Source: Dietzia sp.
GTDB taxonomy: Bacteria; Actinomycetota; Actinomycetes; Mycobacteriales; Mycobacteriaceae
DNA length: 64,000 nt
Reading direction: 5' to 3'
Assembly (NCBI RefSeq): GCF_036741115.1
Contig: NZ_DAINST010000002.1
Span: 2,463-66,462, forward strand
The translations under genes and the position numbers were made by a program. The notes beneath the pieces were generated by a model. That model worked only from the letters and a program-made list of their open reading frames with translations. It was not told the origin of the DNA and searched no databases. Shown one piece after another: positions 8,714 to 49,219 of this stretch. Numbering within the stretch: position 1 is the first letter of the stretch; each line of letters opens with the position of its first letter.

Positions 8714-9961
8714 ATGAGCATCACGATCATGAGCAACTCACCTCGCGCCAAGGGCGCCCTTCCGCAGCGCGCTGCAACCGGCTTCATCGCGCCCCTCGAG
8801 GGCATGCGCGCGATCGCCGCCGTCGGTGTTGTCACCACTCACGTCGCGTTCCTCACGGGCACGTCGACGGGCTCGGTGATCGCCCGGATCTGGGGCCGCT
8901 TCGACCTGTGGGTCGCTGTGTTCTTCGCGCTCTCGGGTTTCCTCATGTGGCGCGGGATCGCTCGCGCGGCGCGCGCCGACGCGCCCCCGCGCCCCGCGGG
9001 GAGCTACTTCCGTTCCCGCGCCGCACGCATCCTCCCCGCATACCTGGCCATGGCGCTGACGGCGCTCGTCCTCCTCCCCGGCAACGTCGGATTGCCCATC
9101 CGCGACTGGATCGCCAACCTGCTGCTCCTCCAGGTCTTCGTCCCCGGCTCCCTCGTCGACGGGCTCACGCACGCGTGGTCCCTATCCGTCGAGGCGACGT
9201 TCTACGTGGTGCTGCCCGTGCTGTGGCTTGCACTGCGCCCGCTGTCCGGGCGGGCGGCGCGGTGGCGGGCTCCGATCATCGCGGCGGTTGCCGTCATCTC
9301 TCTCGGCTGGGCCTACCTCCCGCTCGCCGCGTGGGGGCTGCCAGGGGAGGTCAATACGCACACCCTCCCGCCGGCCTTTGCTTCGTGGTTCGCCGCCGGG
9401 ATGTTGCTCGCCGAGTTCGTGGCGGCGCCGCCCGCGTGGCTGCTGAGGCTGTACGCGGCGCGCTGGTCGCGCTGGGCGTGGTGGGCGCTCGCGGCGGCCG
9501 TCTTCCTCACCACGACGAGCACACGCCTCTACACCGAGGGTTTCGTCCAGGCGACGCCGGCGGAGTTCGCGGGGCGCACGTTCTCGGGCGCGCTCATCGC
9601 ATGGTGCCTGCTCTCGCCGCTGGTGCTCGCGGCGCCCGGCGCGCGCTTCCGCGTGCTGTCCTCGCCGCCGATGCTCGCACTCGGCCGCTGGTCGTACGGG
9701 ATCTTCCTGTGGCACGTGCTCGTTCTGCAGCTGCTCTTCTCGCCGCTCGACGTGCCGATGTTCGGCGGGCACATGGCGCTCATGTGGGTGGCCACGCTGC
9801 TCGTGACCATCGTCGTCGCCGCCGCAAGCTACTCCTGGGTCGAGGAGCCGGCGCGCCGCTTCTGGTCCGCGCGCTCCGCCGCTCGCGCCGAGCGCTCCGC
9901 CGAGGAGTCGAGCGTCGCCCGGGCGAAGACCACCGAGAGCGCGGCGAGCCCGAAGAGCTGA
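8714..9961 (+). CDS. acyltransferase family 3 integral membrane protein (Rv0228/TmaT-like position)
   Basis: ATG at 8714 (MSITIMSNSPRAK). Motifs: GFIAPLEGMRAIAAVGVVTTHVAF, FFALSGFLMWRG, WSLSVEATFYVVLP and C-terminal SYSWVEEPARRFW. About 10 TM helices. Confidence 0.85.
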   Translation: MSITIMSNSPRAKGALPQRAATGFIAPLEGMRAIAAVGVVTTHVAFLTGTSTGSVIARIWGRFDLWVAVFFALSGFLMWRGIARAARADAPPRPAGSYFRSRAARILPAYLAMALTALVLLPGNVGLPIRDWIANLLLLQVFVPGSLVDGLTHAWSLSVEATFYVVLPVLWLALRPLSGRAARWRAPIIAAVAVISLGWAYLPLAAWGLPGEVNTHTLPPAFASWFAAGMLLAEFVAAPPAWLLRLYAARWSRWAWWALAAAVFLTTTSTRLYTEGFVQATPAEFAGRTFSGALIAWCLLSPLVLAAPGARFRVLSSPPMLALGRWSYGIFLWHVLVLQLLFSPLDVPMFGGHMALMWVATLLVTIVVAAASYSWVEEPARRFWSARSAARAERSAEESSVARAKTTESAASPKS

Positions 9962-12900
9962 GCGGTGATCGAGTCGCCGCCCCACACCGTTCCCGGCCAG
10001 GGCTGACGGCCCACGAGCGCCGCGCCCACGGCGAGCGCGCCCGCGGAGAGCAGCGGTGCGGCGCGCGGCGGGAGGCGACGCAGCCAGAGGATCGCGGCCC
10101 CGAACATCGCCAGCCCGGGGATGCCGCCGAGGAACAGCCCCGCGACCGCGCCGCCGATCGCCCAGCGGCGGCGGGTGCCCCGGATGGGCTCCGCCGCGGC
10201 ACCGGCGCGGTCGTGCCCGCGGGCGAAGAGCATCCACAAAACGAAGACCAGCGCGAATGGTCCAGTCGCGAGGGCCGCCCTGTACGGGGTGTCGAGGGGG
10301 AACGTGAGCACGACGCGCGCCCCTGCGGGGGCACCGGCAGGAAGCACGAAGCCCTGTTGCCAGCCGCCTACGGGCACCGCGGAGAGTGGCGTGGAGCCGT
10401 CGGCCGTGACGAGCCGCGCCGTCCATCCGGTGTTGTACGACTGCGGGACCACGAGGAGGCTCCCGGTGTCGCCCGTCGGCGAATCGAGCGAGAGCTCGCG
10501 GCGCGCCGGCGACCACTGTTCGACGGAAGTAGAGACGCGCTTCTGCTCGACCGCGCCGAGCGTCCGCCCCGCGAGCCCTGGAGGGCTCAGCTCGATGCCG
10601 TCGACGCTCAACGCGGGGCCCGGATCCACCTCGACCGTGGTGTGCCCGGCCGGCAGATCGAGGGCGGTGTCGGCCGTGGTCCCGCACGGCGCGGCGAGGA
10701 CGGGAGTGCCGCGGCGGAGGTCGTCGACGCTCGCGCGCAGGGTCATCCGCGTGGAGGACACGGTTTGTCCGCCGTCATCCACGACCTTCACCTCGGGCCC
10801 TGCGGAGCACGGCACCTCCACGAGGTCGCCAGACGAGCCGAGGGCCGGGGCGAGAGACTCGCCGCGCGCGCCGAGCACATCGACCTCGCCGAGAGCGACG
10901 GGGCGGGGCACGAAGCCCTCGCCGGCGTCATTGCGGACGTTGGACCACTCGGTGATCCGGAGGGTCACCTCGTCGTTCGTGGCCCGCGGCAGGTCGAGGA
11001 CCCACGAGCCGTCGGACTCGGCGGGCACGTCGGCGAGGTCGAACTCGGTGGTGCGGTCGCCGACCGCGACCTCGATCTTCTCGGGCTCGGCGCCGTCGAC
11101 GGCGGGGGCCGGGGTCACACGCACGGCGCCGACCGCGCCGCGCCGCGGCAGCGAGACCTTTAGCTCGGGTGTGGGGGTCTCGGCATCGGCGTCGGCGCCG
11201 TCCTTGCCGTCGCCCGAGCCCGAGCTGGTCGTCTCCCCCGCGACCACTCGGTCGCGCTCGGGGATCGTGTCGGTGGGGGCACGCCACGCAGTGAGCGGGT
11301 CGCCGTCCACGGCGGCGAGCGCGTTGCCCATCGGATCGTCGACATCCGAAGCACCGCTCGCCGTGCGCTCCGCGCGCCCGGCGGTGAGCAGCGAGTCCAG
11401 TTCGGCGCCGGGCCGCGCGCGCATCGTGAGCACAGGCCGCAGCTTTTCGGCGGCCGCCAGATCGAGGGTGCGCGAGAACGTGCCCGGCTCCTCCGCCGCC
11501 ATCTCGAGGCTCGAATCGCATGGCGTGGCGCGTTCGGCGCCCGGGCGGTTCCCCGGCCCGGCGATACGCCCGGCCTCGGGCAGGCACGCCGAGCGCCCCG
11601 GGTAGTCGGTCCCCAGCGACCAGCCGAGGACCTGCCCGTCGGCGCGCGGCACGTCGACCCCGCGGCGAGGGAGAACATCCTGCCCCGCGCTCGTGAGTCC
11701 GAGTTCGGAGACCTCGAACGCCGTGCCGCGCGTCCCGGACTCCGTGGCGGCGGCCCGGATCTCGATAAAAGTAGTGGGCCCGGCGGGGAGCGCCACCGAA
11801 GCGGCCGTGCCCGGGGTGATGCTCTGCAGCGCCGTGCCGTTGTCCGTGCGCACCTCGACCCGCACCACCGGCGAGCCCTTCTGTTCTTCGGCGGGCGGCG
11901 TGAGCATCCGCAGCAACAGGCGGTCTCGCGGCTGTGCGATGTCGATGCGCACGCTCTGCCCGAACGCGCCGTAGCCGGTCCGCGAGCGCCACGAGGTGCG
12001 CTCGTCGCGGTCGGCCAGCGCGGCGACGCCGAGCCCGATCTGCACGGGCCCGGGCTGGTTCGCGTCGCCTGCCGAGCTCGACACGCCGATCGAGCCGCCG
12101 CTCCAGCTCGCGGAGGTCCGGCCCCGTGCGCCCGCGGCCGCGTTGCCCTCGGAATCCTGGTCCGGATCCCCGACCTGCGCGGCGTAGTCGGGTAGCGGGC
12201 TCAGCGTTTCCCGCTCCTGCCCGGGCGTGCGCAGCTCGGAGGTGGATTGGGTCGCGCGCCCGAAGTCCGTCTCGCGGTTCGTCGGGGAATCCGTGCCGAT
12301 GACGGCGGTCGGCGCGATCCCCGCGCCGGCGGCGTCACCGGCGAGCAGCCGCGCGGTTGGATCGACTGGCCCTTGCGCGCGCAGTGCGGCGACGTCGTCG
12401 AGCCGCGCGAGGGATTCCGGCCCGCCGGCGACCTGCGGCACCTGGTCGAGCGGGACGGTGTAGGGCTGCTGCGCGGCGTCGGTTCCGGGGCCGACACGGT
12501 AGATCACGATCGGCGGCACCTCCGGGCGGAATCCGGAGTCCACGGTGGCCGTGGCCTCAGCACCGACCACGGGCTCGGAGCCGAGCGGCTCACCGAAACT
12601 CGCTACGGGCGTGAACCCGCCGGAGGAACGCAGCGCCTCGTGCACGAGCGCCGGCCGGGTGCGGCTCTGGTCGGGGACGAGATCGGCGCGGACCACGACA
12701 TAGCCGATGCCCTGCTGCTCGAGCGTCGCAGACAAGCCGGGCGCGGGCCGGCCGGAGTCGAAGACCCGCTGCACGGAATCGAGTGCACGGATCGCGGGCG
12801 CGGGTTGCAGGGGAATCGAGTCGCGGACGGCCCATGGCGATTTTGCGAGGGGCTGCAATGTCTCGTCCCTGCTCGTCCCCCACACCTGCACGCCGAACGA

Positions 12901-14418
12901 GGTTCCGGGGGCGACGAGCGTCCGCGAATCGGAGGCGTTCTCGGCGAGCCAGCCGGCGGCCTCGTCCCAGTACGAGGCGGGCGCGTCGTGCGGGCCGTTG
13001 TCGGCGAGCTCCCCCTTCCACACCGGCACGACCGCGAGCGCGAGCGCGAGGACCACCGCGAGCGCCGCAGCGAGCCCCGGGTAGGCCTCGACGTGCTCGA
13101 GCCGTCGCACCAGGCCGGGCGCGGCGCCCCGCTCGCCCGAGGCACCGTCCCTGTCCCCGGCACTGGCCCTGCCCCTGACGGCGGACGCCGCTCTCCCCAG
13201 CGCGTACGCGAGGCCGAGCACGATCGGGATCCTTCCGACGGGCTCCCATTTGTGAAGGTTCCGGAGCGGCGCGGCGGCGCCGTCGAGGAAATCGCGCACG
13301 GCGCTGGCGAGCGGGAAATGCGGGGCGAGGTGGGAGTCCCAGGTGCCCATGTAGGCCGCCGTCATCGCTAAGAGCCCCACCCCGAGCATGAGCGCGAGCC
13401 GGTCGCGGTGCGGGATGGCCGGGGCCGGGGCCCGATCGCGCCCATCGGCGCGCGCCTTGGCGGCCGGCCACGCGAGACCGGCGAGGCCGGCGCCGGCGAC
13501 GACGGCGGTCGCGACGATCACCAGCGGGGAAGAGACGAGCGGGGCGTTCGCCGGCACGGCCGGGGAGACGTAGGGGACCCAGGCGCTGGTGCCGCGCACG
13601 ACCTCGACGAGGGCGGCCCAGCGGGAGGTCACGGCCGAGGACTCGATGTAGTCGAGGAAGGGCGGCGCGACACCACCGAGCACGAAGAGCGGCACGATCC
13701 ACCACAGGCTGACCAGCGCGGAGAGCCCGATCCACCACGCGGCGACCCGCCGCCACGTCCTATTGGGCCGGCACGTGAGCAGCCAGATCAGCGCGGGGAG
13801 GCACGCGGCGACCGTGGCGACGGCGTTGACCGCGCCCATGAGCGCGAGCGCCAGCGCCCCCGCCGCCCCCGCTCGGCGCGGAGTCCAACGCCCGGTGAGC
13901 CCCGCGTGCACTGCGAGGAGCACCCACGGAGCGAACATCATGGGCCAGATCTCCGAGGAGATCGAGGTGAGCGAGGTGAGGACCTTCGGCGCGCCGACGT
14001 AGGCGAGCGCGGCTAGCACCCGCCACGGACCGGTAGCAATACCGAGTGCGCGGGCGAGCCGGTAGAGACCGGAGAAGCCGACCGTGAGCGCGATCGCCCA
14101 CCACAGGCGCTCCGTGAGCCACGGCGGGACGTGGGCGAGCTGCCCCAGCGCGAAGAAGGCGCCGTGGGGGAAGAGGTAGCCGTAGGCCTGGTTCTGCACC
14201 TGCCCGGAGAACGACTGGTCGGTCCAGACGTGCAGGCTGCGGCCGAGGAAGCCCGCCGGGTCGACGAGCAGGTCGTATTTCGTGTCCGAGACGATCTGGC
14301 CGGGCGATTGCAGCCCGACGACGATCAGGAAGAACGGGAAAGAAAAGAGGACATCCGCGAGCGGGACGCCGAGGAGGTTACAAACCCGGGCCCGGAGCGG
14401 CGCGGACGCCGTGCTCAC
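9829..14418 (-). CDS. aftD: alpha-(1->3)-arabinofuranosyltransferase AftD family (DUF3367) protein
   Basis: 1529 aa. The N-terminal GT-C block DTKYDLLVDPAGFLGRSLHVWTDQSFSGQVQNQAYGYLFPHGAFFALG matches the AftD signature. It has a huge periplasmic middle region and C-terminal TM helices. The DUF2613 gene lies directly upstream, as in M. tuberculosis Rv0236c/Rv0236A. Confidence 0.9.
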   Translation of the reverse strand: MSTASAPLRARVCNLLGVPLADVLFSFPFFLIVVGLQSPGQIVSDTKYDLLVDPAGFLGRSLHVWTDQSFSGQVQNQAYGYLFPHGAFFALGQLAHVPPWLTERLWWAIALTVGFSGLYRLARALGIATGPWRVLAALAYVGAPKVLTSLTSISSEIWPMMFAPWVLLAVHAGLTGRWTPRRAGAAGALALALMGAVNAVATVAACLPALIWLLTCRPNRTWRRVAAWWIGLSALVSLWWIVPLFVLGGVAPPFLDYIESSAVTSRWAALVEVVRGTSAWVPYVSPAVPANAPLVSSPLVIVATAVVAGAGLAGLAWPAAKARADGRDRAPAPAIPHRDRLALMLGVGLLAMTAAYMGTWDSHLAPHFPLASAVRDFLDGAAAPLRNLHKWEPVGRIPIVLGLAYALGRAASAVRGRASAGDRDGASGERGAAPGLVRRLEHVEAYPGLAAALAVVLALALAVVPVWKGELADNGPHDAPASYWDEAAGWLAENASDSRTLVAPGTSFGVQVWGTSRDETLQPLAKSPWAVRDSIPLQPAPAIRALDSVQRVFDSGRPAPGLSATLEQQGIGYVVVRADLVPDQSRTRPALVHEALRSSGGFTPVASFGEPLGSEPVVGAEATATVDSGFRPEVPPIVIYRVGPGTDAAQQPYTVPLDQVPQVAGGPESLARLDDVAALRAQGPVDPTARLLAGDAAGAGIAPTAVIGTDSPTNRETDFGRATQSTSELRTPGQERETLSPLPDYAAQVGDPDQDSEGNAAAGARGRTSASWSGGSIGVSSSAGDANQPGPVQIGLGVAALADRDERTSWRSRTGYGAFGQSVRIDIAQPRDRLLLRMLTPPAEEQKGSPVVRVEVRTDNGTALQSITPGTAASVALPAGPTTFIEIRAAATESGTRGTAFEVSELGLTSAGQDVLPRRGVDVPRADGQVLGWSLGTDYPGRSACLPEAGRIAGPGNRPGAERATPCDSSLEMAAEEPGTFSRTLDLAAAEKLRPVLTMRARPGAELDSLLTAGRAERTASGASDVDDPMGNALAAVDGDPLTAWRAPTDTIPERDRVVAGETTSSGSGDGKDGADADAETPTPELKVSLPRRGAVGAVRVTPAPAVDGAEPEKIEVAVGDRTTEFDLADVPAESDGSWVLDLPRATNDEVTLRITEWSNVRNDAGEGFVPRPVALGEVDVLGARGESLAPALGSSGDLVEVPCSAGPEVKVVDDGGQTVSSTRMTLRASVDDLRRGTPVLAAPCGTTADTALDLPAGHTTVEVDPGPALSVDGIELSPPGLAGRTLGAVEQKRVSTSVEQWSPARRELSLDSPTGDTGSLLVVPQSYNTGWTARLVTADGSTPLSAVPVGGWQQGFVLPAGAPAGARVVLTFPLDTPYRAALATGPFALVFVLWMLFARGHDRAGAAAEPIRGTRRRWAIGGAVAGLFLGGIPGLAMFGAAILWLRRLPPRAAPLLSAGALAVGAALVGRQPWPGTVWGGDSITAQLFGLAALSVVFARATLDSSAERSARAAERADQKRRAGSSTQE

Positions 14419-14424
14419 CGCCGG

Positions 14425-14595
14425 TTAGTTACGCGAGCCGTACTCGACCTGGCCGAACAAGGCCTGGTCCGCAGGCGGGGTGTCGAGCTCGGGGACCGAG
14501 TTCTGCGCGAAGGCCGCGCCTCCGATGAGGGCGACGGCCACGCCGACGACGGCTCCGGCCACCAGGCCGACCACGCCACTGGTCATTGACTTCAT
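14425..14595 (-). CDS. small secreted/membrane protein, DUF2613 (Rv0236A-like)
   Basis: Not in the track because it is under 60 aa. GGAGGA RBS, then ATG: MKSMTSGVVGLVAGAVVGVAVALIGGAAFAQNSVPELDTPPADQALFGQVEYGSRN. The single TM and the C-terminal VEYGxR motif resemble Rv0236A. It ends 6 nt before the aftD start. Confidence 0.8.
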   Translation of the reverse strand: MKSMTSGVVGLVAGAVVGVAVALIGGAAFAQNSVPELDTPPADQALFGQVEYGSRN

Positions 14596-14602
14596 CTAAG
14601 GA

Positions 14603-14664
14603 TCCTCCGCTGCGTTCGCACCGCCCTGCCTCCGGGCATTTCGAGGCGAGCGTCCTCCGCTGCG
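14603..14664. repeat. 12-nt direct repeat tcctccgctgcg (14603-14614 and 14653-14664)
   Basis: Exact duplication read directly. On the minus strand each copy contains GGAGGA. The proximal copy is the RBS of the DUF2613 gene, and the distal copy precedes a 15-codon uORF (14639..14592). Confidence 0.6.
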
Positions 14665-14898
14665 ACTTTAACAGCAGCACCGGCACGGACCCAACGGCAC
14701 GGCGCGGCGAGATGCGGGCGAGCAGCCCGGCGGGCGAGCATCGGCGGACCGCTTTCTCCCCATCCGGGTGACGCCGGATGTTACCGGCGGGTAATGTATG
14801 TCACAGCGCGGGCGCCCAGGGCTCCCGTAGAGGACAGTTCGCAGGCAGGGGCAACGGCCGAGCGCAGGCGAGGCGAGACCGAAGAGTCGGAGGTGCAC

Positions 14899-15633
14899 GT
14901 GGCGAGAAGGACTACGCTGGCGGCAACGAAACCGGCGCCGAGCGGCAAATCGCAGACGGGCAAACAGCCGACGGACAACTCGCAGTCCGGCAAAAGGCAG
15001 TCCGGAAAGTCCAAGAACGCCCGGACCTCCAAGCGCATCCCGCGCGCGATTCGCGAGCAGCAGATGCTCGATGCGGCGATCTCGATCTTCGCCGAGCACG
15101 GCTACCGCTCGACCTCGATGGATGCCATCGCGAAGGCGGCGGACACCTCGAAGCCTATGCTCTACCTCTACTTCGGCTCCAAGGAAGAGCTTTTCCTCGC
15201 GTGCGTCACCCGCGAGTCCGGGCGGCTCATCGACACCCTCAGCTCGCAGATCGCCCCGGACGACACGGGCAGAGAGCGCCTCCGCAAAGTCATCACCTCG
15301 TTCCTCGAGTTCGTCGAGACGAACGCGGATTCGTGGAACGTCGTCTACCGTCAGGCCGAAGCCGAGCCGCCGTTCCGCGAGACTGTTCAGTCGACCCGCA
15401 AGCTCTTCATCGAGCTCACCGCCGATCTCCTCGAACGCTCCACGGCAGAGACCTATTCGAGGGAGGACGCCGAACTCATCGCCGTCGCCCTCGTCGGCGC
15501 GGGCGAGTCCGTCGCCGACCGGGTCGCCTCGCACACGGTCGAGAAGAAGGCGGCCGCCGATCTCATCGTCCAGCTCGGCTGGTCCGGGCTCTCCGGCACA
15601 GAGTCCGCAGGCGTACCCCGCGCCCGCCGCTAG
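14899..15633 (+). CDS. TetR/AcrR family transcriptional regulator with a Lys/Gln/Ser-rich N-terminal extension
   Basis: HTH: MLDAAISIFAEHGYRSTSMDAIAKAADTSKPMLYLYFGSKEELF. The track ORF starts at 14794. I favour the GTG at 14899 or 14893, preceded by GGAGG, but the start is uncertain. Confidence 0.8.
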   Translation: MARRTTLAATKPAPSGKSQTGKQPTDNSQSGKRQSGKSKNARTSKRIPRAIREQQMLDAAISIFAEHGYRSTSMDAIAKAADTSKPMLYLYFGSKEELFLACVTRESGRLIDTLSSQIAPDDTGRERLRKVITSFLEFVETNADSWNVVYRQAEAEPPFRETVQSTRKLFIELTADLLERSTAETYSREDAELIAVALVGAGESVADRVASHTVEKKAAADLIVQLGWSGLSGTESAGVPRARR

Positions 15634-15674
15634 CGCCCCACCACGAAAGAATCGACACAGGGAGAGTCTTGTCC

Positions 15675-17558
15675 GTGAACCCGCAGCCCAAGCAACACAC
15701 GGAGAACCGATACAAGCGAGTGACCGCGCTCGACGTCGCCCGCGGGATTCCGGACATGATCCCCGACCTCCCCAGCGTGTTCCGCGGGCTCGTGCTTCTG
15801 CGCACCATCCGCAAGAGCCACCGCCGCTCCATCGGCCAGGTGTTCGAGAAAAACGTCGAACGCCACCCGGACTCGCCGTTCATCCGCTTCGCCGGCGAGA
15901 CCCTCACCTATGCCGAGTCCAACGCGCGGATCAACCGGATCGCCTCCGTGCTGACGGCGAAGGGCGTGGGTTCCGGGGACACCGTCGGCATCTGCATCAC
16001 CAATAGGCCCGAGGCGCTCCTCTCCGTCATCGCCACGGTCAAGCTCGGCGCCAACGCGGGGATGATCAACGTCAACCAGCGCGGCGACGTCCTCGACCAC
16101 TCGCAGAAGCTCCTCGGCTCGAAAGTCGTGCTCGTCGGGGCGGAGTGCGCCGAGGCCTTCGAGTCGCTCCCCTCCGGTTCGGAATGGGTCGGCGAAGTCA
16201 TCGGCGTCGAATCGGACCGCGACCTTCGCGTCGGCTCGTACACGGCCGGCGAGCGCACCGAGTCGATGGCCGCGCTGCCGTGGCTCGGGGAGACGATCTC
16301 CGAGTTGGGCGATCGCGCGAGCGCGGAGAACCCGCCGTCGACCGGCAAGGTGACGGCCGGCGAGACCGCTTACCAGATCTTCACCTCCGGAACCACGGGG
16401 ATGCCCAAGGCGTCGAAGATGTCGCACCTGCGGTGGAACAAGGCGATGGTCGCGTTCGGCCTCTCCGGGGCACGCCTGCGCCACACCGACGTGCTTTACT
16501 GCCCGCTGCCGCTGTATCACAACAACGCGCTGACGGTCGCGCTGTCCGCTGTGCTCGGTGGCGGGGGTTGCCTCGCGATCTCGGAGAAGTTCTCGGCACG
16601 CCGCTTCTGGTCGGAGATAGTCGACTCGCAGGCCACCGCCTTCATCTACATCGGCGAGCTGTGCCGCTATCTCCTCAACCAGGCCGAGCGCCCCGAGGAG
16701 CACGAGCATTCCCTGCGGATGATCCTGGGCAACGGCCTCCGCCCGGAAATTTGGAAGGAATTCCAGGAGCGCTTCCGGATTCCCCGCGTCTGCGAGTTCT
16801 ACGCCGCCTCCGAATCGCCCGTCGCATTCGTCAACGCGTTCAGCATCGACGCCACCGCAGGATTCACCACCGTCCCGCACAAGCTCGTCAAGGTCGATAC
16901 CGATACCGAAGAGCTCATTCGCGGTGCCGACGGCAAACTCGTCGAGGCCAAGCCGGGCGAGATCGGGCAGATGATCGGCCACATCACCAAGACCACGCCC
17001 TTCGACGGATACACCTCGAAGGAGGCGACGGAGAGGAAGATCGTCCGCGACGCCTTCAAGAAGGGCGATGCCTGGTTCCTCTCCGGCGACCTCATGTTCA
17101 ACCAGGGCTTCAACCACGTGGCCTTCGTGGACCGGCTGGGCGACACCTTCCGCTGGAAGGGCGAGAACGTCGCCACCACCGAGGTGGAGGGGGCGTTCGC
17201 CGGTATCGACGGCGTGGATACGGCGACCGTCTACGGAGTCCAGATCCCCGGCGCGGATGGCCGCGCCGGCATGGCCGCGCTCAAGCTCGTGGACGACGCG
17301 GAGTTCGACCCGGTCGCCACCGCACATGCGCTCACCGCGCGCCTCCCCGGCTACGCGGTACCGCTGTTCATCCGACTCGTCGACCAGGTCGCCCAGACCT
17401 CCACGTTCAAGGTGCAGAAGTCCTCGCTCAAGAAGGAGGGCTACGACGCCTCCGCGACGAAGGACCCCATCTACGTCTTCTGCCAGTCCGAGTGCACCTT
17501 CGTCCCGTACTACGAGGGCGCGGAGCTCGATGCGGCTGCGGGCTCGGTCTCCTCGTAA
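15675..17558 (+). CDS. very-long-chain acyl-CoA synthetase / fatty-acid transport protein family (FadD6-like)
   Basis: GTG at 15675 after GGAGAG. AMP-binding motif YQIFTSGTTGMPKAS and FATP signature DRLGDTFRWKGENVATTEVE. The upstream part of track ORF 14778..17558 overlaps the TetR gene in another frame. Confidence 0.85.
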   Translation: MNPQPKQHTENRYKRVTALDVARGIPDMIPDLPSVFRGLVLLRTIRKSHRRSIGQVFEKNVERHPDSPFIRFAGETLTYAESNARINRIASVLTAKGVGSGDTVGICITNRPEALLSVIATVKLGANAGMINVNQRGDVLDHSQKLLGSKVVLVGAECAEAFESLPSGSEWVGEVIGVESDRDLRVGSYTAGERTESMAALPWLGETISELGDRASAENPPSTGKVTAGETAYQIFTSGTTGMPKASKMSHLRWNKAMVAFGLSGARLRHTDVLYCPLPLYHNNALTVALSAVLGGGGCLAISEKFSARRFWSEIVDSQATAFIYIGELCRYLLNQAERPEEHEHSLRMILGNGLRPEIWKEFQERFRIPRVCEFYAASESPVAFVNAFSIDATAGFTTVPHKLVKVDTDTEELIRGADGKLVEAKPGEIGQMIGHITKTTPFDGYTSKEATERKIVRDAFKKGDAWFLSGDLMFNQGFNHVAFVDRLGDTFRWKGENVATTEVEGAFAGIDGVDTATVYGVQIPGADGRAGMAALKLVDDAEFDPVATAHALTARLPGYAVPLFIRLVDQVAQTSTFKVQKSSLKKEGYDASATKDPIYVFCQSECTFVPYYEGAELDAAAGSVSS

Positions 17559-17822
17559 ACTGGCATCTTCTCGTCAACCGATCTCTCATCTGCGGGCCTG
17601 CGCGCAGCGGTTCTCCCGCCGGCGCACCCAGCCGCGCGCGAGGAGCGTCACAGCGTGCCGCGCGGGCACGAGCGCACGCACCTCATTAGGATCAGCTCAA
17701 GCGTTTCGGCGTGCGCCGGCGCCCGGATCGGCCTCGTCGCCCGGGCTCGGTCACCGTCACGAGCCGGGAGTACTCGTCGAGCAACTACCGAGCTAAAGAG
17801 CCATCGAGCACAGCAGGGGGAG

Positions 17823-42430: not shown

Positions 42431-44080
42431 ATGACCGCCGAGCAGGACGAACAGGCCACAGCGAACGATCGGCCAGAACAGACTCCGACCCCGCGCGTGC
42501 CGCCGGCCGCCGGCGTCCCCAACCCGGCGACGGGCACGAACGTGACCAGTGCTTTCGAGATCGCACGCGTCTCCCCCGAGCGCCCCGCTCTCATCGCCCC
42601 GGACGGAACCGAGGTCTCCTACGGCGAGTTCGCCTCCCGCACCCACCGCCTCGCCCACGGGCTCCGCGCGCTCGGCCTCGGCGCCGGGGACTCGATCGTC
42701 CTCCTCGCCCCGAACGGCCGCGAGTTCCTCGAGGTCTATTTCGCCGCGCTCGAGATCGGCCTCTACATCGCTCCGGCGAACTGGCACCTCGCGGGCCCCG
42801 AGGTCGCCTACATCCTCGACAACTCCGAGGCCGGCGCCTTCGTCGCGGCCGAGCGATTCGCGGAGGTCGCCGTCACCGCGCGCGAATCGGCCGCTCTCGA
42901 TCCCGCCCGCTGCTTCGCCATCGGCGAGGTCCCCGGCTTCCGCCCGATCGACGAGCTCGCCGCGGGCCACCCGGACACCCCGCCGGACGGGCGGACGCTC
43001 GGCGGGCCGATGCTCTACACGTCGGGCACGACCGGGCGCCCCAAGGGCGTGCGCCGCCCGCTCACCGGGGCGAGCCCGGACGAGATCACGGTCCCCAACT
43101 ACTTCTTCTTCGCCGGCTTCGGAATCGAGGCCCCGGACAACGTCCACATCTGTGGCTCGCCGCTGTACCACACGGCGGTGCTCAATTTCGTGGTCATCTC
43201 GCTGCAGCTCGGGCAGCTCGTCGTGCTCATGGACCGCTGGTCGCCGGAGGCCATGCTGCGACTCATCGAGCGCCACGGCGTGACCCATTCACACATGGTC
43301 CCCACGCAGTTCTCGCGCCTCCTCGAACTCCCCGAGGACGTCCGCGAACGGTACGATGTGTCGAGCCTGCGCACCGTGATCCACGGTGCTGCCCCGTGCC
43401 CTCTACATGTGAAGAGGGCGATGCTGGAGTGGTGGGGCCCGAAGCTCACGGAGTACTACGCGGGCACCGAGGGCGGCGGTTGCACGATCACCGGAGAGGA
43501 GTGGCTGCACAAGCCCGGCAGCGTGGGACGGCCGTGGGCCACCTCCGAGATCCGCATCCTCGATGACGACGGAGGTCCGCTCCCCACCGGCGAGATCGGC
43601 AACGTCTACGTGGAGATGCGCGGCTCGTCCTTCAGCTACTACAAGGACCCCGACAAGACCGAAGGTGCTCGGGTCGGGAAGATGTTCACCATGGGCGACC
43701 TCGGCTACCTCGACGCCGACGGCTATCTCTTCCTCTGCGATCGCAAGAACGACATGATCATCTCCGGCGGGGTCAACATTTATCCGGCCGAGGTCGAGTC
43801 CGAGCTCCTCGCGCTCCCCGAGGTCCGCGACGCCGCGGTGTTCGGCATTCCGCACCCGGATTGGGGCGAGGAGGTCAAGGCGGTCGTCGAGCCGTCTGCG
43901 GGCTCGGTGCCCCCCAACGAAGCCGCCGCGGCCGCTCTCGCCGAGTCGATTCTCTCCGGGCTCTCCGGCCGGCTCGCGCGGTTCAAGATGCCGCGCTCGG
44001 TCGATTTCGTCGAGGCTCTGCCACGGCAGGAGAACGGCAAGCTCGTCAAGCGCGTGCTCAAGGATCCGTACTGGACCTAA
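42431..44080 (+). CDS. acyl-CoA synthetase (FadD19-like size, 549 aa)
   Basis: ATG at 42431 after GGGAGAA. LYTSGTTGRPKGV, YYAGTEGGG, GDLGYLDADGYLFLCDRKNDMIISGGVNIYP, and C-terminal NGKLVKR. Confidence 0.85.
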   Translation: MTAEQDEQATANDRPEQTPTPRVPPAAGVPNPATGTNVTSAFEIARVSPERPALIAPDGTEVSYGEFASRTHRLAHGLRALGLGAGDSIVLLAPNGREFLEVYFAALEIGLYIAPANWHLAGPEVAYILDNSEAGAFVAAERFAEVAVTARESAALDPARCFAIGEVPGFRPIDELAAGHPDTPPDGRTLGGPMLYTSGTTGRPKGVRRPLTGASPDEITVPNYFFFAGFGIEAPDNVHICGSPLYHTAVLNFVVISLQLGQLVVLMDRWSPEAMLRLIERHGVTHSHMVPTQFSRLLELPEDVRERYDVSSLRTVIHGAAPCPLHVKRAMLEWWGPKLTEYYAGTEGGGCTITGEEWLHKPGSVGRPWATSEIRILDDDGGPLPTGEIGNVYVEMRGSSFSYYKDPDKTEGARVGKMFTMGDLGYLDADGYLFLCDRKNDMIISGGVNIYPAEVESELLALPEVRDAAVFGIPHPDWGEEVKAVVEPSAGSVPPNEAAAAALAESILSGLSGRLARFKMPRSVDFVEALPRQENGKLVKRVLKDPYWT

Positions 44081-44513
44081 TGCCCAAGTGTGTGAGCCGG
44101 AGTAAATGCGGCGAAAGGGCCTTTGATTTCAGGTGCCGCTGTCCTCGGGCGACTTCACGCTCGACGCCGCGGGCCCGCTGACTCGCTCGTCTCTTCCGGC
44201 GCGCACGTCTTCCTATGCTGCCGATCGCAGCTTAGTCCGGTGCATCGAGTGGCGCTCCTTGAGGCGTGTGTGCCGCCCGAGCGGCACCACGCCGAGCTGC
44301 CCTCCCCGCACGATGGGCTCGTCTGACGGCTGACGCCGCGGTCGACTCTTGCTCGGCGCCTAGTCGACCACAACGGCCACGCCGCCTACATGACCGTGTG
44401 GCCGAAAGAGTTTGATGTGCCAGAGCTACTCTTTGGCGACGCGTTGATCCTCACCGAAGGGAATGCCCGGCGAGCTAACTGGTTGATTCTCCGGACAGAT
44501 GCTGTCTGAGATC

Positions 44514-46547
44514 TCAATTGAGGTCCCTCCATACGCGATGCCGTTCTTGGGCAGATGACCTGAGAACCTCTCGCATCAACCGTCCGTGGTCGTCAATCTC
44601 GGCCTCGCCCCACATAGTCCTCGAATGGGTAATCGCCGCCATGATCTGGAACTTCAAGGACTCCCGGTCGGACCGGTACTGCTTCTCCTTCGCCGCAGCG
44701 GAAAGGTTATTGCGCTTGCTGTTCTCCGACCTTGACATAATCGCGAGGTTGCCGAAGCTGTCGAGAACCTCGGAGGGCAGCCGAACATGCCCGGCAGCTG
44801 TGTCAGGATTCTGTGGTTCGAAGTGTTCGATAGACGTGCGATAGCGAAAAGCGAAGCTGCCCGCATCGATCAATCTTTCATCGACAACAACTCCGTCGGT
44901 GAGCTCCGCCAAAGCTGAGTCCCCGGAATCGAGTCGGTTCCACAGCAGGTAGTCCAAGTAGTTGAAGAGGAAATGCGGCACGCCCACGCCCCGGTCGACC
45001 GCCTCCGGGCCTTCTGTTTCACCGATTTGGGGCCAGAGATATTCTGAGCGTCTGGACGCCAGAGCGTTCAAGGAATCGAGATAGCGCTCGCCGTCGACAT
45101 CCCCCTTGACGTGCTTAAACCAGAGGATTTCAAGGAAAGCGTAGAGGAAGTTCTTGTATGTTCGCCGCGAATCGGTGACCTGAAACATCGACTGTATGTG
45201 GATGATCCGATCATGCACACGTTCAGGCAGCTCATCTCCGTCACGCAAGGAACCGCCCGGGAAGGTGTTCCGCGGCGATAGTTTGTAACTGCCTCTCGAT
45301 CCCGTCCTGTGGGGCCGGTGAAGAACCCACAAAGAGTCATTTTCGCTCACATTCTTATTCTGGTCAGTCTTGATGACGTAGTTGTCGAATAAGAACCGCA
45401 CGATGAAGAGAGTCCACATAAAGCCCCGAACGTCTTCAGCGGTACGAACATATTCGTCAAAGAGATCGATGAGCCGCTTATCGTCGAGGCCGAACGGGCG
45501 GTCTGAATCCGCCCAGTCGAAGGTCGGCGAGGACGGATTCTTCTCTATTCTCAACGATACGTCGAGCCTAAGTGCGTGGAGCAAGAGGTTCGGGAAATCG
45601 ATAATTGACTCGTAACGATCGAGGTCTTTTTCTTGGCCATCCTCAACGACCGAGCACTCAGCATCGAGCACGCCTCCCAAGGTCGTCCCCACTGACTCTG
45701 CTGGCGTGACCTGTCCGCAATCCGCCACGAGTTCGTCCCACGAGTCAACTTCGATTCGATCCCAGTTCACGCCGAAGATGTCGCTTCGATTGTTCGAAAG
45801 GAAGCCCATTTGCAGATACCGTGTCATATCGGAGCACGCGTCCCATAGAGCCGTGAGCGTCGATCGCTCATTGTGGGATTCCTCCAGCTTGTTCAGCAGT
45901 CGCGCCTTAACGATCTCGTGCTTCGAGAGCTGCTCACCCCGGCTGTTCATGATCTCGAAATAGTGGTTGAGGTCCGTGTCGCCGGGGAGCGAAGCCCGCA
46001 CAACAACCACGGAATCTATTAGATACTCGAGATCATTCTTCTCTACAAAAACTGCCTCACCGTTCGCAGCCACAATGCAACGAGTGATCACCTGGATACC
46101 ATTCGCGATCTCGTCGGTAGCGAGAGTCCTCGCGGGCGACTCGAGTGTATAGAGGTCGTTCGGGTATTGAGCAAGGGCGGCGAGATCGGATTGCGACCGT
46201 TGTCGCCCCTCGAAGGTGATCGTCGTCGCCGGGACGACGGCGTCTCCGAGAAGTTCTCGGCATACCGGGTGGCTGAGAATCAATGCCAGCGTAGTGAGAC
46301 GCTGCTGGCCATCCACGACCTCCAGCCTCTCTACCGGAGCTCCGTCGATAATTCGAGTGTCGCTGTGGACAACTATGGTCCCGAGGTAGTAATTGGGGAC
46401 ACCCTTGATTCGCGCGTCGCGTACGTCCCTCAGTAGCTGCTCAATCTGCTCCTCTCCCCAGGCATAGGCGCGCTGGTAGACGGGGATAACGTAGCTGCTG
46501 TCCTCAAATAACGCCCGGACGGTGAGGTCTTCGGGTGGAGTGCTCAC
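44514..46547 (-). CDS. DUF262 (ParB-like NTPase/nuclease) + DUF1524 (His-Me finger) protein, GmrSD/BrxU/SspE class
   Basis: 677 aa. N-terminal IPVYQRAYAWGEEQIEQLL, VDGQQRLTTLALIL, FEIMNSRGEQLSKHEIVK. C-terminal FRYRTSIEHFEPQNPD ... FGNLAIMSRSENSKRNN. GTG start 2 nt after the upstream stop, with a GAGGGAG RBS. Confidence 0.9.
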   Translation of the reverse strand: MSTPPEDLTVRALFEDSSYVIPVYQRAYAWGEEQIEQLLRDVRDARIKGVPNYYLGTIVVHSDTRIIDGAPVERLEVVDGQQRLTTLALILSHPVCRELLGDAVVPATTITFEGRQRSQSDLAALAQYPNDLYTLESPARTLATDEIANGIQVITRCIVAANGEAVFVEKNDLEYLIDSVVVVRASLPGDTDLNHYFEIMNSRGEQLSKHEIVKARLLNKLEESHNERSTLTALWDACSDMTRYLQMGFLSNNRSDIFGVNWDRIEVDSWDELVADCGQVTPAESVGTTLGGVLDAECSVVEDGQEKDLDRYESIIDFPNLLLHALRLDVSLRIEKNPSSPTFDWADSDRPFGLDDKRLIDLFDEYVRTAEDVRGFMWTLFIVRFLFDNYVIKTDQNKNVSENDSLWVLHRPHRTGSRGSYKLSPRNTFPGGSLRDGDELPERVHDRIIHIQSMFQVTDSRRTYKNFLYAFLEILWFKHVKGDVDGERYLDSLNALASRRSEYLWPQIGETEGPEAVDRGVGVPHFLFNYLDYLLWNRLDSGDSALAELTDGVVVDERLIDAGSFAFRYRTSIEHFEPQNPDTAAGHVRLPSEVLDSFGNLAIMSRSENSKRNNLSAAAKEKQYRSDRESLKFQIMAAITHSRTMWGEAEIDDHGRLMREVLRSSAQERHRVWRDLN

Positions 46548-46549
46548 TA

Positions 46550-48019
46550 TTACGCTCCCTCAGCTACTTGGTCCATGATGTTCCAACTCCGCTCGAAGAA
46601 GTAGTGGAGATCCTCGTATCTTTCGAAAGACGCAGGGCTTGATACCCGGACGATGCGAACAAAATCCGCGGGATCTATTGATTGCCGGAGCTCGGAGAAC
46701 AGATTCACTGCCGGAAGGTTGCCTCGATCGGTGATACCAAGAGCGTAGTTATTCACCGTCGCCCGCTTAAGCGTGCGCATCTCGACTCGTAGTGCCATCG
46801 CATAGCGGACAAAGAGTGTCACGGCTCTGTCGAGGAGCTCGCCACCAAATCGATCAACGTAGTAGAAGGTCAGGCATCGGATGAGATCGAGAACGAACGC
46901 GAATCGTCTATCTCCCGAGAACCGAGCCATGTGGGAATTCAAGGCGTCGAGCACAGAAATGACATTCGCAGGTAGTCGGATCTCGCCAACAGGCCCCTCT
47001 GATCGATGAGCGTCATCGAAAAATCCGACGGCCCGACCGAGGCGATAGTAGTGACTAGTCATCTGGAAAAACGTCTCGCCGTTGATGATCGGCTGATCGA
47101 CCTGAAACGGAAAATCGATCGAACGAATAACCCCGTAGCGAAGCAGAGTGTCATTTGACGCTCGATAGCTATCCGTGAAGTTCTTCGCATAGAGGTACGG
47201 AAGCGACCAAGGCGCGCCCACTTGCGTACCGCCTTCTTCCCGGATCCCTTTGAATATGTCAACGTTACCGCTGGTGAATCCCTTTTCGGGCACATCGCGG
47301 CCGTTGGACCAGCGCTTGATCTTGAAGAGGACGTCGTTGAACAACATCGATACGGACGCCGCCGGCATCTCCTCCCAGAGCCTCACCATCTCGTCGCGCA
47401 TGTTGATCATGCCCGGCAGCGTCCTCATCTCCCTGAGGTGAAAAGCCTTGAGCAGATCTGTCGTGTACAGCTCCTTGCCTCGGGTGTTCTGGGAGTCGAA
47501 CATCTGGAATGCCGCGTCGAGGTCGTCGAGAGTCATGATCACGACCTCACACTTGCCGAGCAAAGTGTCGAGAAGTTCTTGCCGGTCGTCTTTTGACCAC
47601 GTTCCCAGCATTTCTCGAAGGTGAGCGAAATTCGCCGCGAGGTTGGCTACGCTCCGCCTTCGGCCGTGCTGGGGAACATCAATGCTACGTAGTCGATCGA
47701 GATCAGGAAAGGTTGACGAGCTTGAGTGGACGATCTCGGGCGACTCGCAGAGAGCGATGGCAAGGAGAGCGAACGTGAAGAAGCGTTGCTGTCCGTCAAC
47801 GATATCCGCGGAGCCTTCCGGCACAGTCCCGGGCGGACGATGAGTGATGATCGTGCCGACCCGGTACGAGCTCTTTTCTCGAAAGGCCCAGATGTCACGG
47901 ACGAGCTCATCAACGTTTCTTATAGACCACGAATAAGGCCGCTGGTAGTCCGGAATCGCCAATTCGGTCGCGAGCAGATCGCCAACGGACTTGAGTTGAG
48001 CCAGATTACTTCTTCCCAC
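46550..48019 (-). CDS. DUF262-only protein with a C-terminal region of about 300 aa of unknown fold
   Basis: 489 aa. IPDYQRPYSWSIRNVDELV, VDGQQRFFTFALLAIAL, FQMFDSQNTRGKELYTTDLLK. No His-Me/HNH motif was seen in the C-terminal part. Confidence 0.85.
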   Translation of the reverse strand: MGRSNLAQLKSVGDLLATELAIPDYQRPYSWSIRNVDELVRDIWAFREKSSYRVGTIITHRPPGTVPEGSADIVDGQQRFFTFALLAIALCESPEIVHSSSSTFPDLDRLRSIDVPQHGRRRSVANLAANFAHLREMLGTWSKDDRQELLDTLLGKCEVVIMTLDDLDAAFQMFDSQNTRGKELYTTDLLKAFHLREMRTLPGMINMRDEMVRLWEEMPAASVSMLFNDVLFKIKRWSNGRDVPEKGFTSGNVDIFKGIREEGGTQVGAPWSLPYLYAKNFTDSYRASNDTLLRYGVIRSIDFPFQVDQPIINGETFFQMTSHYYRLGRAVGFFDDAHRSEGPVGEIRLPANVISVLDALNSHMARFSGDRRFAFVLDLIRCLTFYYVDRFGGELLDRAVTLFVRYAMALRVEMRTLKRATVNNYALGITDRGNLPAVNLFSELRQSIDPADFVRIVRVSSPASFERYEDLHYFFERSWNIMDQVAEGA

Positions 48020-48025
48020 TGGCCG

Positions 48026-48031
48026 AGAGTA
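48026..48031 (-). promoter_or_regulatory. candidate -10 hexamer (TACTCT, TAnnnT) for a leaderless transcript of the island operon
   Basis: On the minus strand the sequence reads gagg-TACTCT-cggcca-GTG. The hexamer therefore ends 6 nt before the GTG start at 48019, the geometry seen for leaderless actinobacterial mRNAs. No SD sequence precedes the GTG. Confidence 0.25.
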
Positions 48032-48109
48032 CCTCGCCCGGGCCCGTGGCTTCCCGGATTCAGGCGCGTAATCAACGAGCCTAACGAGCGCCTATTCGAC
48101 CGTATCGGC

Positions 48110-49219
48110 TCAGCTCCCGACGTGCTTCGAGACCCGTTCCGGCAGATCCGCAGCCGCCGAATTCTCGTACGGCACCTCCTCGCCCGCGGGCACGGGACCG
48201 GGAGCGGTGCCGTCGCCGAATGGCGAACCACCGAGCTCCTCACGGTGATGCGGCGTGAGCAGCCCGGCGAGGCTCGGCCCCTTGGGAACCACACCGCGGG
48301 GATTGATCTCGTGGTGCACCACGTAGTAGTGCTCCTTGATCTGCGTGAAGTCGGTGGTGTCGCCGAATCCCGGGGTCTGGAACAGGTCACGGAGGTAGCC
48401 CCAGAGCGCCGGCATCTCGCTGATCTTGTTCCGGTTGACCTTGAAGTGCCCGTGGTAGACCGCGTCGAAACGGACGAGCGTGGTGAAGGTCCGGATATCG
48501 GCGGCGGTGATGTGGTCGCCCACGAGGTAGCGGCGGTTCGAGAGCCGCTCCTCGAGCCAATCGAGGGTGGCGAAGACCTCATCGAACGCCTCTTCGTGCG
48601 GTCCTTGGTCCGCAGCGAAGCCGGTGCGGTAGACGCCGTTGTTGAGCGAGGGGTAGACCCGGTCGTCGATCTCCGCGATCTCGTCCGCCTGCTCGTCCGG
48701 CAGCAGGTCGGGGGCACCTGCGCGGTGGAGCCCGCTCCATTCCCGGACGAAGTCCGTGTTCATCTTCGAGAAGCCGTTGGTCACCACGGACCGCGACTCG
48801 ATGTCGACGAGCGCCGGCACCGTGATCCCGCGCGGGTAATCGGGAATCCGATTGAAGTACGCCTCCTGGAGGCGCTCGATCCCGAGCACAGGGTCCCGGC
48901 CCTCGGGGTCGAGGTCGAAGATCCACGAGTTCTTGTCGTGCGTCGGGCCGGCCAGGGCGAGCGAGATCGAGTCCTCGAGGCCGAGGAGGCGCCGGGTGAT
49001 CACGGAGCGATGGGCCCACGGGCACGCGCGCGCGGCGGCGAGCCGGTAACGCCCCGCCTCGACGGGCCACTTCATTTCGCCGATGACGTCGCCCTGCGGG
49101 GCACTGCCCGGCTCGAGTGATGCCACCACCCGGTCGTTGATGTACGTGGTGTCCCGGACGTAGGCTCCGGTCTTCGGCAGGTTGTCGGGCTTGAGATCGG
49201 AAGCGTTCTCTTCGGCCAT
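48110..49219 (-). CDS. Xi-class glutathione S-transferase / glutathionyl-hydroquinone reductase (YqjG/ECM4-like)
   Basis: GRYRLAAARACPWAHRSVITRRL contains the CPWA active site. VPALVD, and a C-terminal helical GST domain. Confidence 0.85.
   Translation of the reverse strand: MAEENASDLKPDNLPKTGAYVRDTTYINDRVVASLEPGSAPQGDVIGEMKWPVEAGRYRLAAARACPWAHRSVITRRLLGLEDSISLALAGPTHDKNSWIFDLDPEGRDPVLGIERLQEAYFNRIPDYPRGITVPALVDIESRSVVTNGFSKMNTDFVREWSGLHRAGAPDLLPDEQADEIAEIDDRVYPSLNNGVYRTGFAADQGPHEEAFDEVFATLDWLEERLSNRRYLVGDHITAADIRTFTTLVRFDAVYHGHFKVNRNKISEMPALWGYLRDLFQTPGFGDTTDFTQIKEHYYVVHHEINPRGVVPKGPSLAGLLTPHHREELGGSPFGDGTAPGPVPAGEEVPYENSAAADLPERVSKHVGS

Follow-up and report, generated by a model that had tools for sequence, protein, structure and literature searches.

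The stretch of DNA considered here, a 64,000-nucleotide segment of the Dietzia sp. contig NZ_DAINST010000002.1 (hereafter the window), contains between two metabolic genes a segment whose content of guanine plus cytosine (G+C) lies far below that of its surroundings. This segment (positions 44081-48109) carries two intact open reading frames (ORFs), orfA and orfB, lodged between the gene for an AMP-dependent acyl-CoA ligase and that for a Xi-class glutathione S-transferase (GST). To judge from the sequence features described below, it is very probably a TgvAB-type cassette for type IV restriction, made up of two genes that stand alone and were gained by horizontal transfer; the pair is placed in this family, within the GmrSD superfamily, by its architecture, motifs, homology and conservation. 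The interval and its flanks comprise the following features:

42431..44080, plus strand: AMP-dependent acyl-CoA ligase gene, left flank (549 aa as called; Pfam AMP-binding, 2.7e-67, and AMP-binding_C)
44081..44146, no strand: 66-bp spacer that separates the hmp remnant from the ligase stop codon, a putative deletion junction
44147..44326, plus strand: remnant of an hmp (flavohaemoglobin) pseudogene, its last 59 codons and stop, of host-like G+C content (tblastn, BLASTP)
44385..44513, minus strand: left end of the foreign DNA, approximately 130 bp of non-coding sequence 3' of orfB (boundary approximate, placed by the fall in G+C)
44514..46547, minus strand: orfB, TgvB-like, 677 aa, with DUF262, a helical middle region and a DUF1524 His-Me finger nuclease domain
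46550..48019, minus strand: orfA, TgvA-like, 489 aa, with DUF262 and a DUF7834 helical domain, without a nuclease domain
48020..48109, minus strand: spacer of 90 bp from the GST stop codon to the orfA start codon
48110..49219, minus strand: Xi-class GST or glutathionyl-hydroquinone-reductase-like gene, right flank (Pfam GST_C_2 and GST_N_2, source names)

All three of GST, orfA and orfB are read from the minus strand, with GST upstream. The TAA stop of orfA is followed after 2 nt by the GTG start of orfB, which is preceded by a Shine-Dalgarno-like run, GAGGGAG. Scanning of the 90-bp spacer region for promoters and terminators gave no excess over shuffled sequences and no consensus promoter. 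A public gene call for orfA (P0001) places its start at a TTG at 47962, giving a product of 470 aa; as the alignment with homologues begins at residue 6 of the 489-aa ORF, the GTG at 48019 is the likelier start. Both ORFs are full length relative to their homologues.

The protein products share an N-terminal DUF262 domain (Pfam GmrSD_N) with scores of 1.6e-25 in orfA and 1e-30 in orfB, which is followed by DUF7834 (4.3e-47) in the former and by the DUF1524 domain (GmrSD_C, 9.9e-10) in the latter. The DUF262 domain of orfA harbours the motifs YQR25, DGQQR75 and FQMFDSQN171. In orfB, a pattern scan recovered YQR24 and DGQQR79; the third motif (FxxxN) was unmatched by the scan pattern and was read by eye in the translation as YFEIMNSRGEQL, a stretch that aligns with the TgvB homologue of Bifidobacterium. 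The His-Me finger residues of orfB (IEH575FEP, GN600L and EN609SKRNN) are kept in four of the five actinobacterial homologues. Exact look-ups with orfB and with ectC, a gene of the wider neighbourhood, returned no match.

The reference for these comparisons is TgvAB of Vibrio cholerae (VC1767/VC1766), a two-protein type IV restriction system of the GmrSD family encoded on the pathogenicity island VPI-2 (Vizzarro et al., J Bacteriol 2024; PMC11411939; PMC11014532). V. cholerae TgvA and TgvB, together with several homologues, were compared as their first 399 residues, as given in Table S5 of PMC11411939. Residues 1-399 of V. cholerae TgvA contain the same domains as orfA (GmrSD_N, 6e-29; DUF7834, 3.4e-38), and the two proteins share 26% identity (6e-16) over DUF262 only, while orfB is 28% identical to V. 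cholerae TgvB over 422 aa (4e-34). Both ORFs are closer to a pair from Table S5 of Bifidobacterium origin, with 32% identity over 447 aa (4e-58) between orfA and the TgvA homologue of Bifidobacterium longum and 36% over 398 aa (3e-63) between orfB and the Bifidobacterium TgvB homologue. The best fold matches of an AlphaFold (AF2) model of orfA, with a predicted local distance difference test score of 88.9, are SspE and DndI, and its match to BrxU (7p9m) is weak (E = 0.11); SspE and BrxU were the top structural matches of the TgvAB authors' own models. Profile-profile comparison confines the homology between the orfA and orfB families to DUF262. The same comparison was negative for DUF7834 as a degenerate copy of the middle and nuclease regions of orfB, and DUF7834 is thus a distinct domain and not a degenerate C-terminal part of orfB.

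The pairing of the two genes is conserved well beyond this locus. An A gene is followed directly by a B gene in all 12 of the other evaluable loci, with this order seen in 4 of 4 other actinobacterial contexts, where the genes overlap by 4 nt, and in each of the 8 distant loci that could be evaluated, which come from low-G+C hosts in a viral-contig collection. The source-named relatives of orfA are mostly from Actinobacteria (Nocardioidaceae, Demequina, Dietzia, Arthrobacter, Agrococcus, Serinicoccus, Brevibacterium and Kocuria), that of Brevibacterium carrying the name 'RloF', and remoter relatives occur in Geobacter and Bacteroidales. Bifidobacterium and Arthrobacter pairs are likewise included in Table S5 of PMC11411939, which reports 1744 stand-alone hits to TgvAB homologues as against 102 in type I restriction-modification operons. 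In other actinobacterial hosts the pair has a G+C content of 0.59-0.64, and the defence-like neighbours found elsewhere include a second GmrSD gene with RAMA, Mrr, toxin-antitoxin pairs and AAA_14. Relatives of orfA at approximately 34% identity are present on 876 plasmids in PLSDB, of which 840 come from Klebsiella and 751 are predicted to be conjugative (a TgvA-like gene lies, for example, at NZ_CP055414.1:120900-122174), and in 10 predicted proviral contigs; sequenced phage genomes gave no match. In two unrelated actinobacterial contexts, a gene for a helicase of approximately 1800 aa (AAA_11/AAA_12/MTES_1575) stands directly upstream of the pair (L105:427-5832 and L108:2373-7820), the first of which additionally has a divergent GmrSD+RAMA+DUF4357 gene; helicase and tgvAB-like pair may represent a recurrent association.

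The G+C content of 44081-48109 is 0.569, compared with 0.700 for the remaining window. It is the lowest-G+C 4-kb window in the 64 kb (z = -6.2 against all non-overlapping 4-kb windows), and no second comparable trough is seen across the window at 2-kb resolution. A mild dip at 14001-17600 (0.66-0.67), which holds an AMP-binding enzyme ORF (14778-17558), appears ordinary and not a second island. The abrupt drop in base composition that the initial annotation had reported between the ligase and GST genes is therefore real, as is its contrast between inside and outside, although the figures quoted (45-52% against about 75%) overstate it: in 300-nt windows of the sliding profile G+C is 0.50-0.60 between approximately 44,400 and 48,000 and mostly 0.63-0.77 on either side. 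The drop had also been placed at the ligase stop codon (44080), which is too far to the left. The first approximately 300 bp 3' of the ligase gene are of host-like composition, with 60-nt lines of 0.62-0.77 from 44141 to 44380, and the left compositional border lies at approximately 44381, where the 60-nt G+C drops from 0.68-0.77 to 0.57. The foreign segment extends from about 44385, an approximate boundary, to 48110, and measures approximately 3.7 kb. The approximately 130 bp at its left end (44385-44513) have no similarity to the fetched loci except L010, a locus that also carries the gene call for the ligase.

The same deviation is evident in the coding sequences. G+C at third codon positions (GC3) is 0.686 in orfB and 0.659 in orfA, as against 0.877 in the ligase gene, 0.886 in the GST gene and 0.80-0.94 in the remaining likely genes of the window, so that the cassette genes fall approximately 0.2 below their neighbours. 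Codons ending in A or T make up 31-34% of the cassette genes and 6-11% of the flanking genes; the A/T-ending codon usage claimed for the former is thus correct as a shift but not as a majority, G/C-ending codons predominating everywhere. The tetranucleotide L1 distance of the segment is also an outlier as it stands (z = 13.5) and ceases to be one once corrected for base composition (z = 0.9), from which it follows that the foreignness is essentially a G+C effect.

Comparison with relatives shows that the segment occupies a position held by other genes elsewhere. Contigs of relatives were fetched from a protein search with GST, to which their own GST proteins are 74-88% identical. In L097-L099 both flanks are collinear with those of the window at approximately 80% nucleotide identity (window 56000-48171 and 44074-36006); the homology ends at the stop codon of the ligase gene and approximately 60 nt inside the 3' end of GST (48171). 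The states of the GST 3' neighbourhood are as follows:

Window: hmp remnant and tgvAB-like pair; GC3 of the pair 0.66-0.69
L097-L099 (GST identity 84%): hmp and an Rrf2 regulator gene; host-like, GC3 0.94 and 0.90
L100/L101 (GST identity 81%): three 5-oxoprolinase-type genes; host-like
L110-L112 (GST identity 74%): a Fic/Doc-RHH toxin-antitoxin pair, then 5-oxoprolinase-type genes; host-like
L102-L104 (GST identity 88%): a GDSL lipase gene; host-like

Five states are thus found in five lineages, with the cargo of the window as the only compositional outlier, and in none of the syntenic relatives examined do the same two genes occur at the site. This bears out the earlier claim of a foreign, inserted segment, but the accompanying suggestion of a defence hotspot holds only as regards variability: because four of the five states consist of host-composition metabolic genes, with a toxin-antitoxin pair added in one lineage, the interval is a synteny-variable junction and not a dedicated defence hotspot. 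That toxin-antitoxin pair, immediately 3' of the GST stop codon at L110:10065-10624 and also in L111 and L112, encodes a Fic/Doc-like toxin of 119 aa and an RHH antitoxin of 67 aa. The last approximately 20 GST codons (window 48110-48171) differ in every relative examined, GST proteins ranging from 352 to 369 aa, and by these alignments the 3' end of the GST gene itself falls within the variable junction. Beyond these contigs, a scan of genome contigs with the GST protein yielded only homologues of approximately 60% identity without synteny, and a scan of metagenome contigs with the ligase gave a best match of 74% (L017) and ligase-GST adjacency in none of 80 loci. The gene after the ligase in L017 starts like an acyl-CoA dehydrogenase, as read by eye, and the P0122 look-up ended at the GST stop codon.

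The previous content of the site can be read in part from the host-like DNA left of the cassette. When residues 372-430 of the hmp product of L098 were searched against the whole window by tblastn, a match was obtained at 44147-44323 on the plus strand (42% identity, E = 1.5e-6); pairwise BLASTP of the remnant against L098 hmp gave an ungapped alignment (2e-10), and the stop codon (44324-44326) occupies the homologous position. Pfam returned nothing for a 76-aa translation of the remnant, and the 64-kb window holds no further detectable copy of hmp. The gene order in L098 is ligase, rrf2, hmp, GST, and the remnant with its homologous stop indicates that the ancestor had ligase(+), rrf2(+) and hmp(+) facing GST(-), an order that persists in L097-L099. 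We infer that rrf2 and the first approximately 371 codons of hmp (about 1.7 kb, comprising some 86% of hmp) were deleted from the window. The remnant is 54% identical to its counterpart at the nucleotide level, and its identity at third positions, 0.41 as against 0.64 in flanking orthologues, implies long decay. The foreign DNA occupies the interval bounded by the stop codons of the former hmp gene and of GST; since approximately 240 bp of host-like DNA separate the points of deletion and insertion, these are most simply regarded as two events. A 10-nt match, CGCCGCCTAC, at window 44378-44387, which in L098 lies at the GST stop codon, was considered as a remnant of the target but was too short and was not used.

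The absence of recognizable mobility functions noted in the initial annotation was upheld: ARAGORN found no tRNA or tmRNA in the whole window, an Rfam search returned no family, the genes from approximately 37.6 to 55.4 kb encode no integrase, transposase or other mobility domain, and a search of the borders for direct and inverted repeats produced only short, imperfect matches at chance level. In the scenario favoured here, the cassette would have entered between the 3' ends of hmp and GST, co-directional with and downstream of GST, with the loss of rrf2 and the first approximately 86% of hmp as a separate step. By analogy, the likeliest mode of entry would be independent of an integrase, either by capture through end-joining or illegitimate recombination or by import from a cassette-carrying relative through homologous recombination.

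A second insertion without mobility genes was observed 2.4 kb from the interval in L097 (5999-8857), where a 2.86-kb low-G+C insert (G+C 0.49-0.51, GC3 0.57-0.61) has the ectC terminator hairpin on one side and the stop codon of DUF2332 on the other. It encodes an Eco57I-like N6-adenine methylase or restriction-type protein (496 aa) and a 175-aa ORF, is missing from L099 and from L098, whose empty site is L098:8842-8857, although L098 is otherwise 99.4% identical to L097, and replaces 16 nt of the empty site without target duplication. Within the 1 kb that precedes the left junction L097 and L098 show 29 mismatches, as against 0-6 per 500 nt elsewhere, an enrichment that hints at arrival of the L097 insert by homologous recombination with flanking DNA from a diverged relative. 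It is a speculative and rather doubtful extension of these observations that the GST 3' junction and the ectC|DUF2332 junction together could form, in this actinobacterial clade, a recurrent, integrase-independent landing pad at which small defence and addiction cassettes are taken up at the 3' ends of genes and then spread among relatives by recombination between homologous flanks, for which the candidates are the tgvAB-like pair of the window, the Fic/Doc-RHH pair of L110-L112 and the low-G+C Eco57I-like module of L097.

Several alternative accounts of the function of the pair can be weighed against the TgvAB assignment. As orfB alone holds the complete GmrSD architecture, and single-chain GmrSD enzymes are known to function alone (PMC4437046, PMC8565348), it might be a self-sufficient enzyme of this type with orfA as an accessory, either a decoy for the anti-restriction proteins of phages, an idea raised by the TgvAB authors themselves, or a specificity or regulatory subunit. 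However, neither TgvA nor TgvB of V. cholerae confers protection alone, even when over-expressed (PMC11411939, PMC11014532), mutation of the DGQQR motif of TgvA abolishes defence, and an A gene accompanies the orfB clade at each of the 12 other loci and is translationally coupled to orfB here, all of which makes autonomy of orfB unlikely. It is much less probable still that the pair provides the restriction function of a phosphorothioate-dependent system that senses a backbone modification of the host, in the manner of SspE or DndI. These two proteins do provide the best matches in the PDB by sequence and fold (DndI, 9jfl; SspE, 6jiv), the N-terminus is matched by the SspE and 'Orf5' models of PADLOC, and there is a weak DndB match (0.0014, below the cut-off). 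Nevertheless, the SspE and DndI matches do not reach beyond the DUF262 region that all have in common, no modification genes of the ssp or dnd kind occur in the scanned neighbourhood or beside the homologues, and the DUF7834 partner is a TgvA signature.

The origin of the segment is open to two further interpretations. The initial annotation had raised the old decay of a larger element, and the segment might in principle be the last piece of a prophage, an integrative and conjugative element or a genomic island whose integrase and ends have decayed, given that the pair elsewhere lies inside larger, lower-G+C defence neighbourhoods and that its relatives occur on the plasmids and in the proviral contigs mentioned above. 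Against this, the two genes are intact and have only about 220 bp of foreign non-coding DNA around them (approximately 130 and 90 bp), searches brought up neither pseudogenes of an element nor repeats nor a tRNA, the sole gene fragment is that of the host hmp, and sequenced phage genomes hold no match; decay of a larger element is accordingly a distinctly improbable origin. Vertical inheritance of a native pair, with low G+C arising from constraints on its own sequence, is scarcely credible. Homologous pairs in other actinobacteria are indeed also somewhat poorer in G+C than core genes and the G+C-normalized tetranucleotide signature is not deviant, but no syntenic relative examined carries the pair, other genes being present at the site, and a host gene remnant adjoins it. 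Moreover, GC3, on which the encoded protein imposes little constraint, falls below that of every neighbouring gene, and homologues are scattered patchily over phyla and plasmids.

A number of observations weigh against acquisition of an active TgvAB-type system, the reading preferred here. The V. cholerae proteins on which experiments were done are only 26-28% identical to those encoded here, and as the TgvB sequence is limited to residues 1-399, its nuclease domain is compared through Pfam and motifs only. No NCBIfam model matches orfA or orfB, and the PADLOC (2023) models match only the N-terminal DUF262 region (Orf5, HEC-06 and SspE), partial matches that were not accepted as membership. 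A TgvB homologue from a metagenome-assembled genome of the Nocardioidaceae (L011:9689-11593) has Arg in place of the catalytic His (SIERF versus SIEHF). This homologue may be a nuclease without activity, or the change may be a sequencing variant, and the substitution implies that members of the family need not all be active nucleases. As regards origin, the nearest orfA relatives, at only 50% identity, are too distant for a donor to be named, and no cassette-lacking genome at 95% identity or more was found.

With the TgvAB assignment, a compositional anomaly is given a function, that of a complete and apparently active modification-dependent restriction system in an uncultured, high-G+C actinobacterium, and the Pfam domain DUF7834, a term absent from the searchable literature, is tied to the TgvA partner protein, a connection likewise not found there. 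The locus is also a clear-cut case in nature of a minimal defence cassette put in place without mobility machinery, with the hmp remnant marking the earlier content of the site. For work on actinobacterial phages, resistance to those with hypermodified DNA would be predicted by analogy. Current understanding is otherwise unchanged, as publications already describe this family with its architecture and its broad occurrence, which takes in the Actinobacteria. With regard to the wider context, the ligase gene closes a cluster of ChsH2, thiolase-like and acyl-CoA dehydrogenase genes, and a gene for a 1529-aa AftD-type arabinofuranosyltransferase (window 9829-14418, minus strand; GT-C_AftD, 2.3e-224) suggests that the host is an arabinogalactan-making member of the Mycobacteriales. 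The same sequence is present on contig Ga0121367_100082 of JGI metagenome 3300014092, with one mismatch in the 4029-bp island interval compared.

In V. cholerae, TgvAB targets the glucosylated 5-hydroxymethylcytosine of T-even phages; defence is lost with DGQQR mutants of TgvA or TgvB and with the TgvB substitutions H571A and N602A (PMC11411939, PMC11014532). By analogy, orfA, comprising a DUF262 NTPase/sensor and the DUF7834 helical domain, and orfB, in which DUF262 is joined by a helical linker to the DUF1524 His-Me nuclease, would be translated from one operon and act together. The DGQQR nucleotide-binding pockets of both proteins would sense hypermodified phage DNA and license cutting by the orfB nuclease, whilst unmodified host DNA would be spared, with the consequence that no methylase would be needed. 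Complex formation, the need for both proteins and the kind of modification targeted are all carried over from the V. cholerae system; the target in an actinobacterial host may be other than glucosyl-5-hydroxymethylcytosine, and it is possible that the actinobacterial TgvAB clade recognises a different DNA modification altogether.

Measured against known systems, the segment differs from a classical integrative genomic island, with its integrase or transposase, tRNA or att site and flanking repeats: no tRNA was found in the window, no flanking repeat beyond chance at the borders and no mobility domain among the neighbouring genes. It resembles more closely those integrase-free defence insertions in which a small low-G+C cassette lies between conserved core genes at a variably occupied junction. 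Unlike in defence islands and hotspots, most alternative occupants are host-composition metabolic genes, and evidence of recurrent defence cargo comes from no more than the tgvAB-like cassette, a single Fic/Doc toxin-antitoxin pair and the Eco57I-like insertion at a distance of 2.4 kb. The proteins share the DUF262 NTPase domain with SspE and DndI, but any likeness beyond this domain and a general helical content is unconvincing (template modelling scores of 0.28-0.43), and the linkage of those proteins to sspABCD or dndBCDE has no counterpart, such domains being absent between 37.6 and 55.4 kb and beside the homologues. The single-chain GmrSD enzymes Eco94GmrSD, BrxU and HEC-06 are matched by orfB in its DUF262, helical linker and DUF1524 layout and in its catalytic motifs; however, those enzymes act alone, whereas here the GmrSD-like protein is always paired with a DUF262+DUF7834 protein, and the BREX linkage of BrxU is not seen, as there are no BREX genes in the neighbourhood (genes at approximately 37.6-55.4 kb). 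The split GmrS/GmrD of Escherichia coli CT596, a pair of DUF262-only and DUF1524-only proteins, is also organized differently. From V. cholerae TgvAB itself the cassette differs in standing alone between chromosomal metabolic genes and not in a type I restriction-modification operon or pathogenicity island, in genes that lie 2 nt apart in place of an 8-bp overlap, and in a host that is a 70% G+C actinobacterium, with the modest identity already given. In common with TgvAB, it consists of two co-oriented, abutting genes with A upstream of B, in which A combines DUF262 with DUF7834 and lacks a nuclease and B combines DUF262 with DUF1524 in one chain. The His-Me residues H...N...N of TgvB are present in orfB, as motifs not residue-aligned to TgvB H571 and N602, given that only TgvB 1-399 was compared. 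The QR and DGQQR motifs occur in both proteins, FxxxN is found in orfA and, by eye, in orfB, and sequence homology to both VC1767 and VC1766 is detectable.

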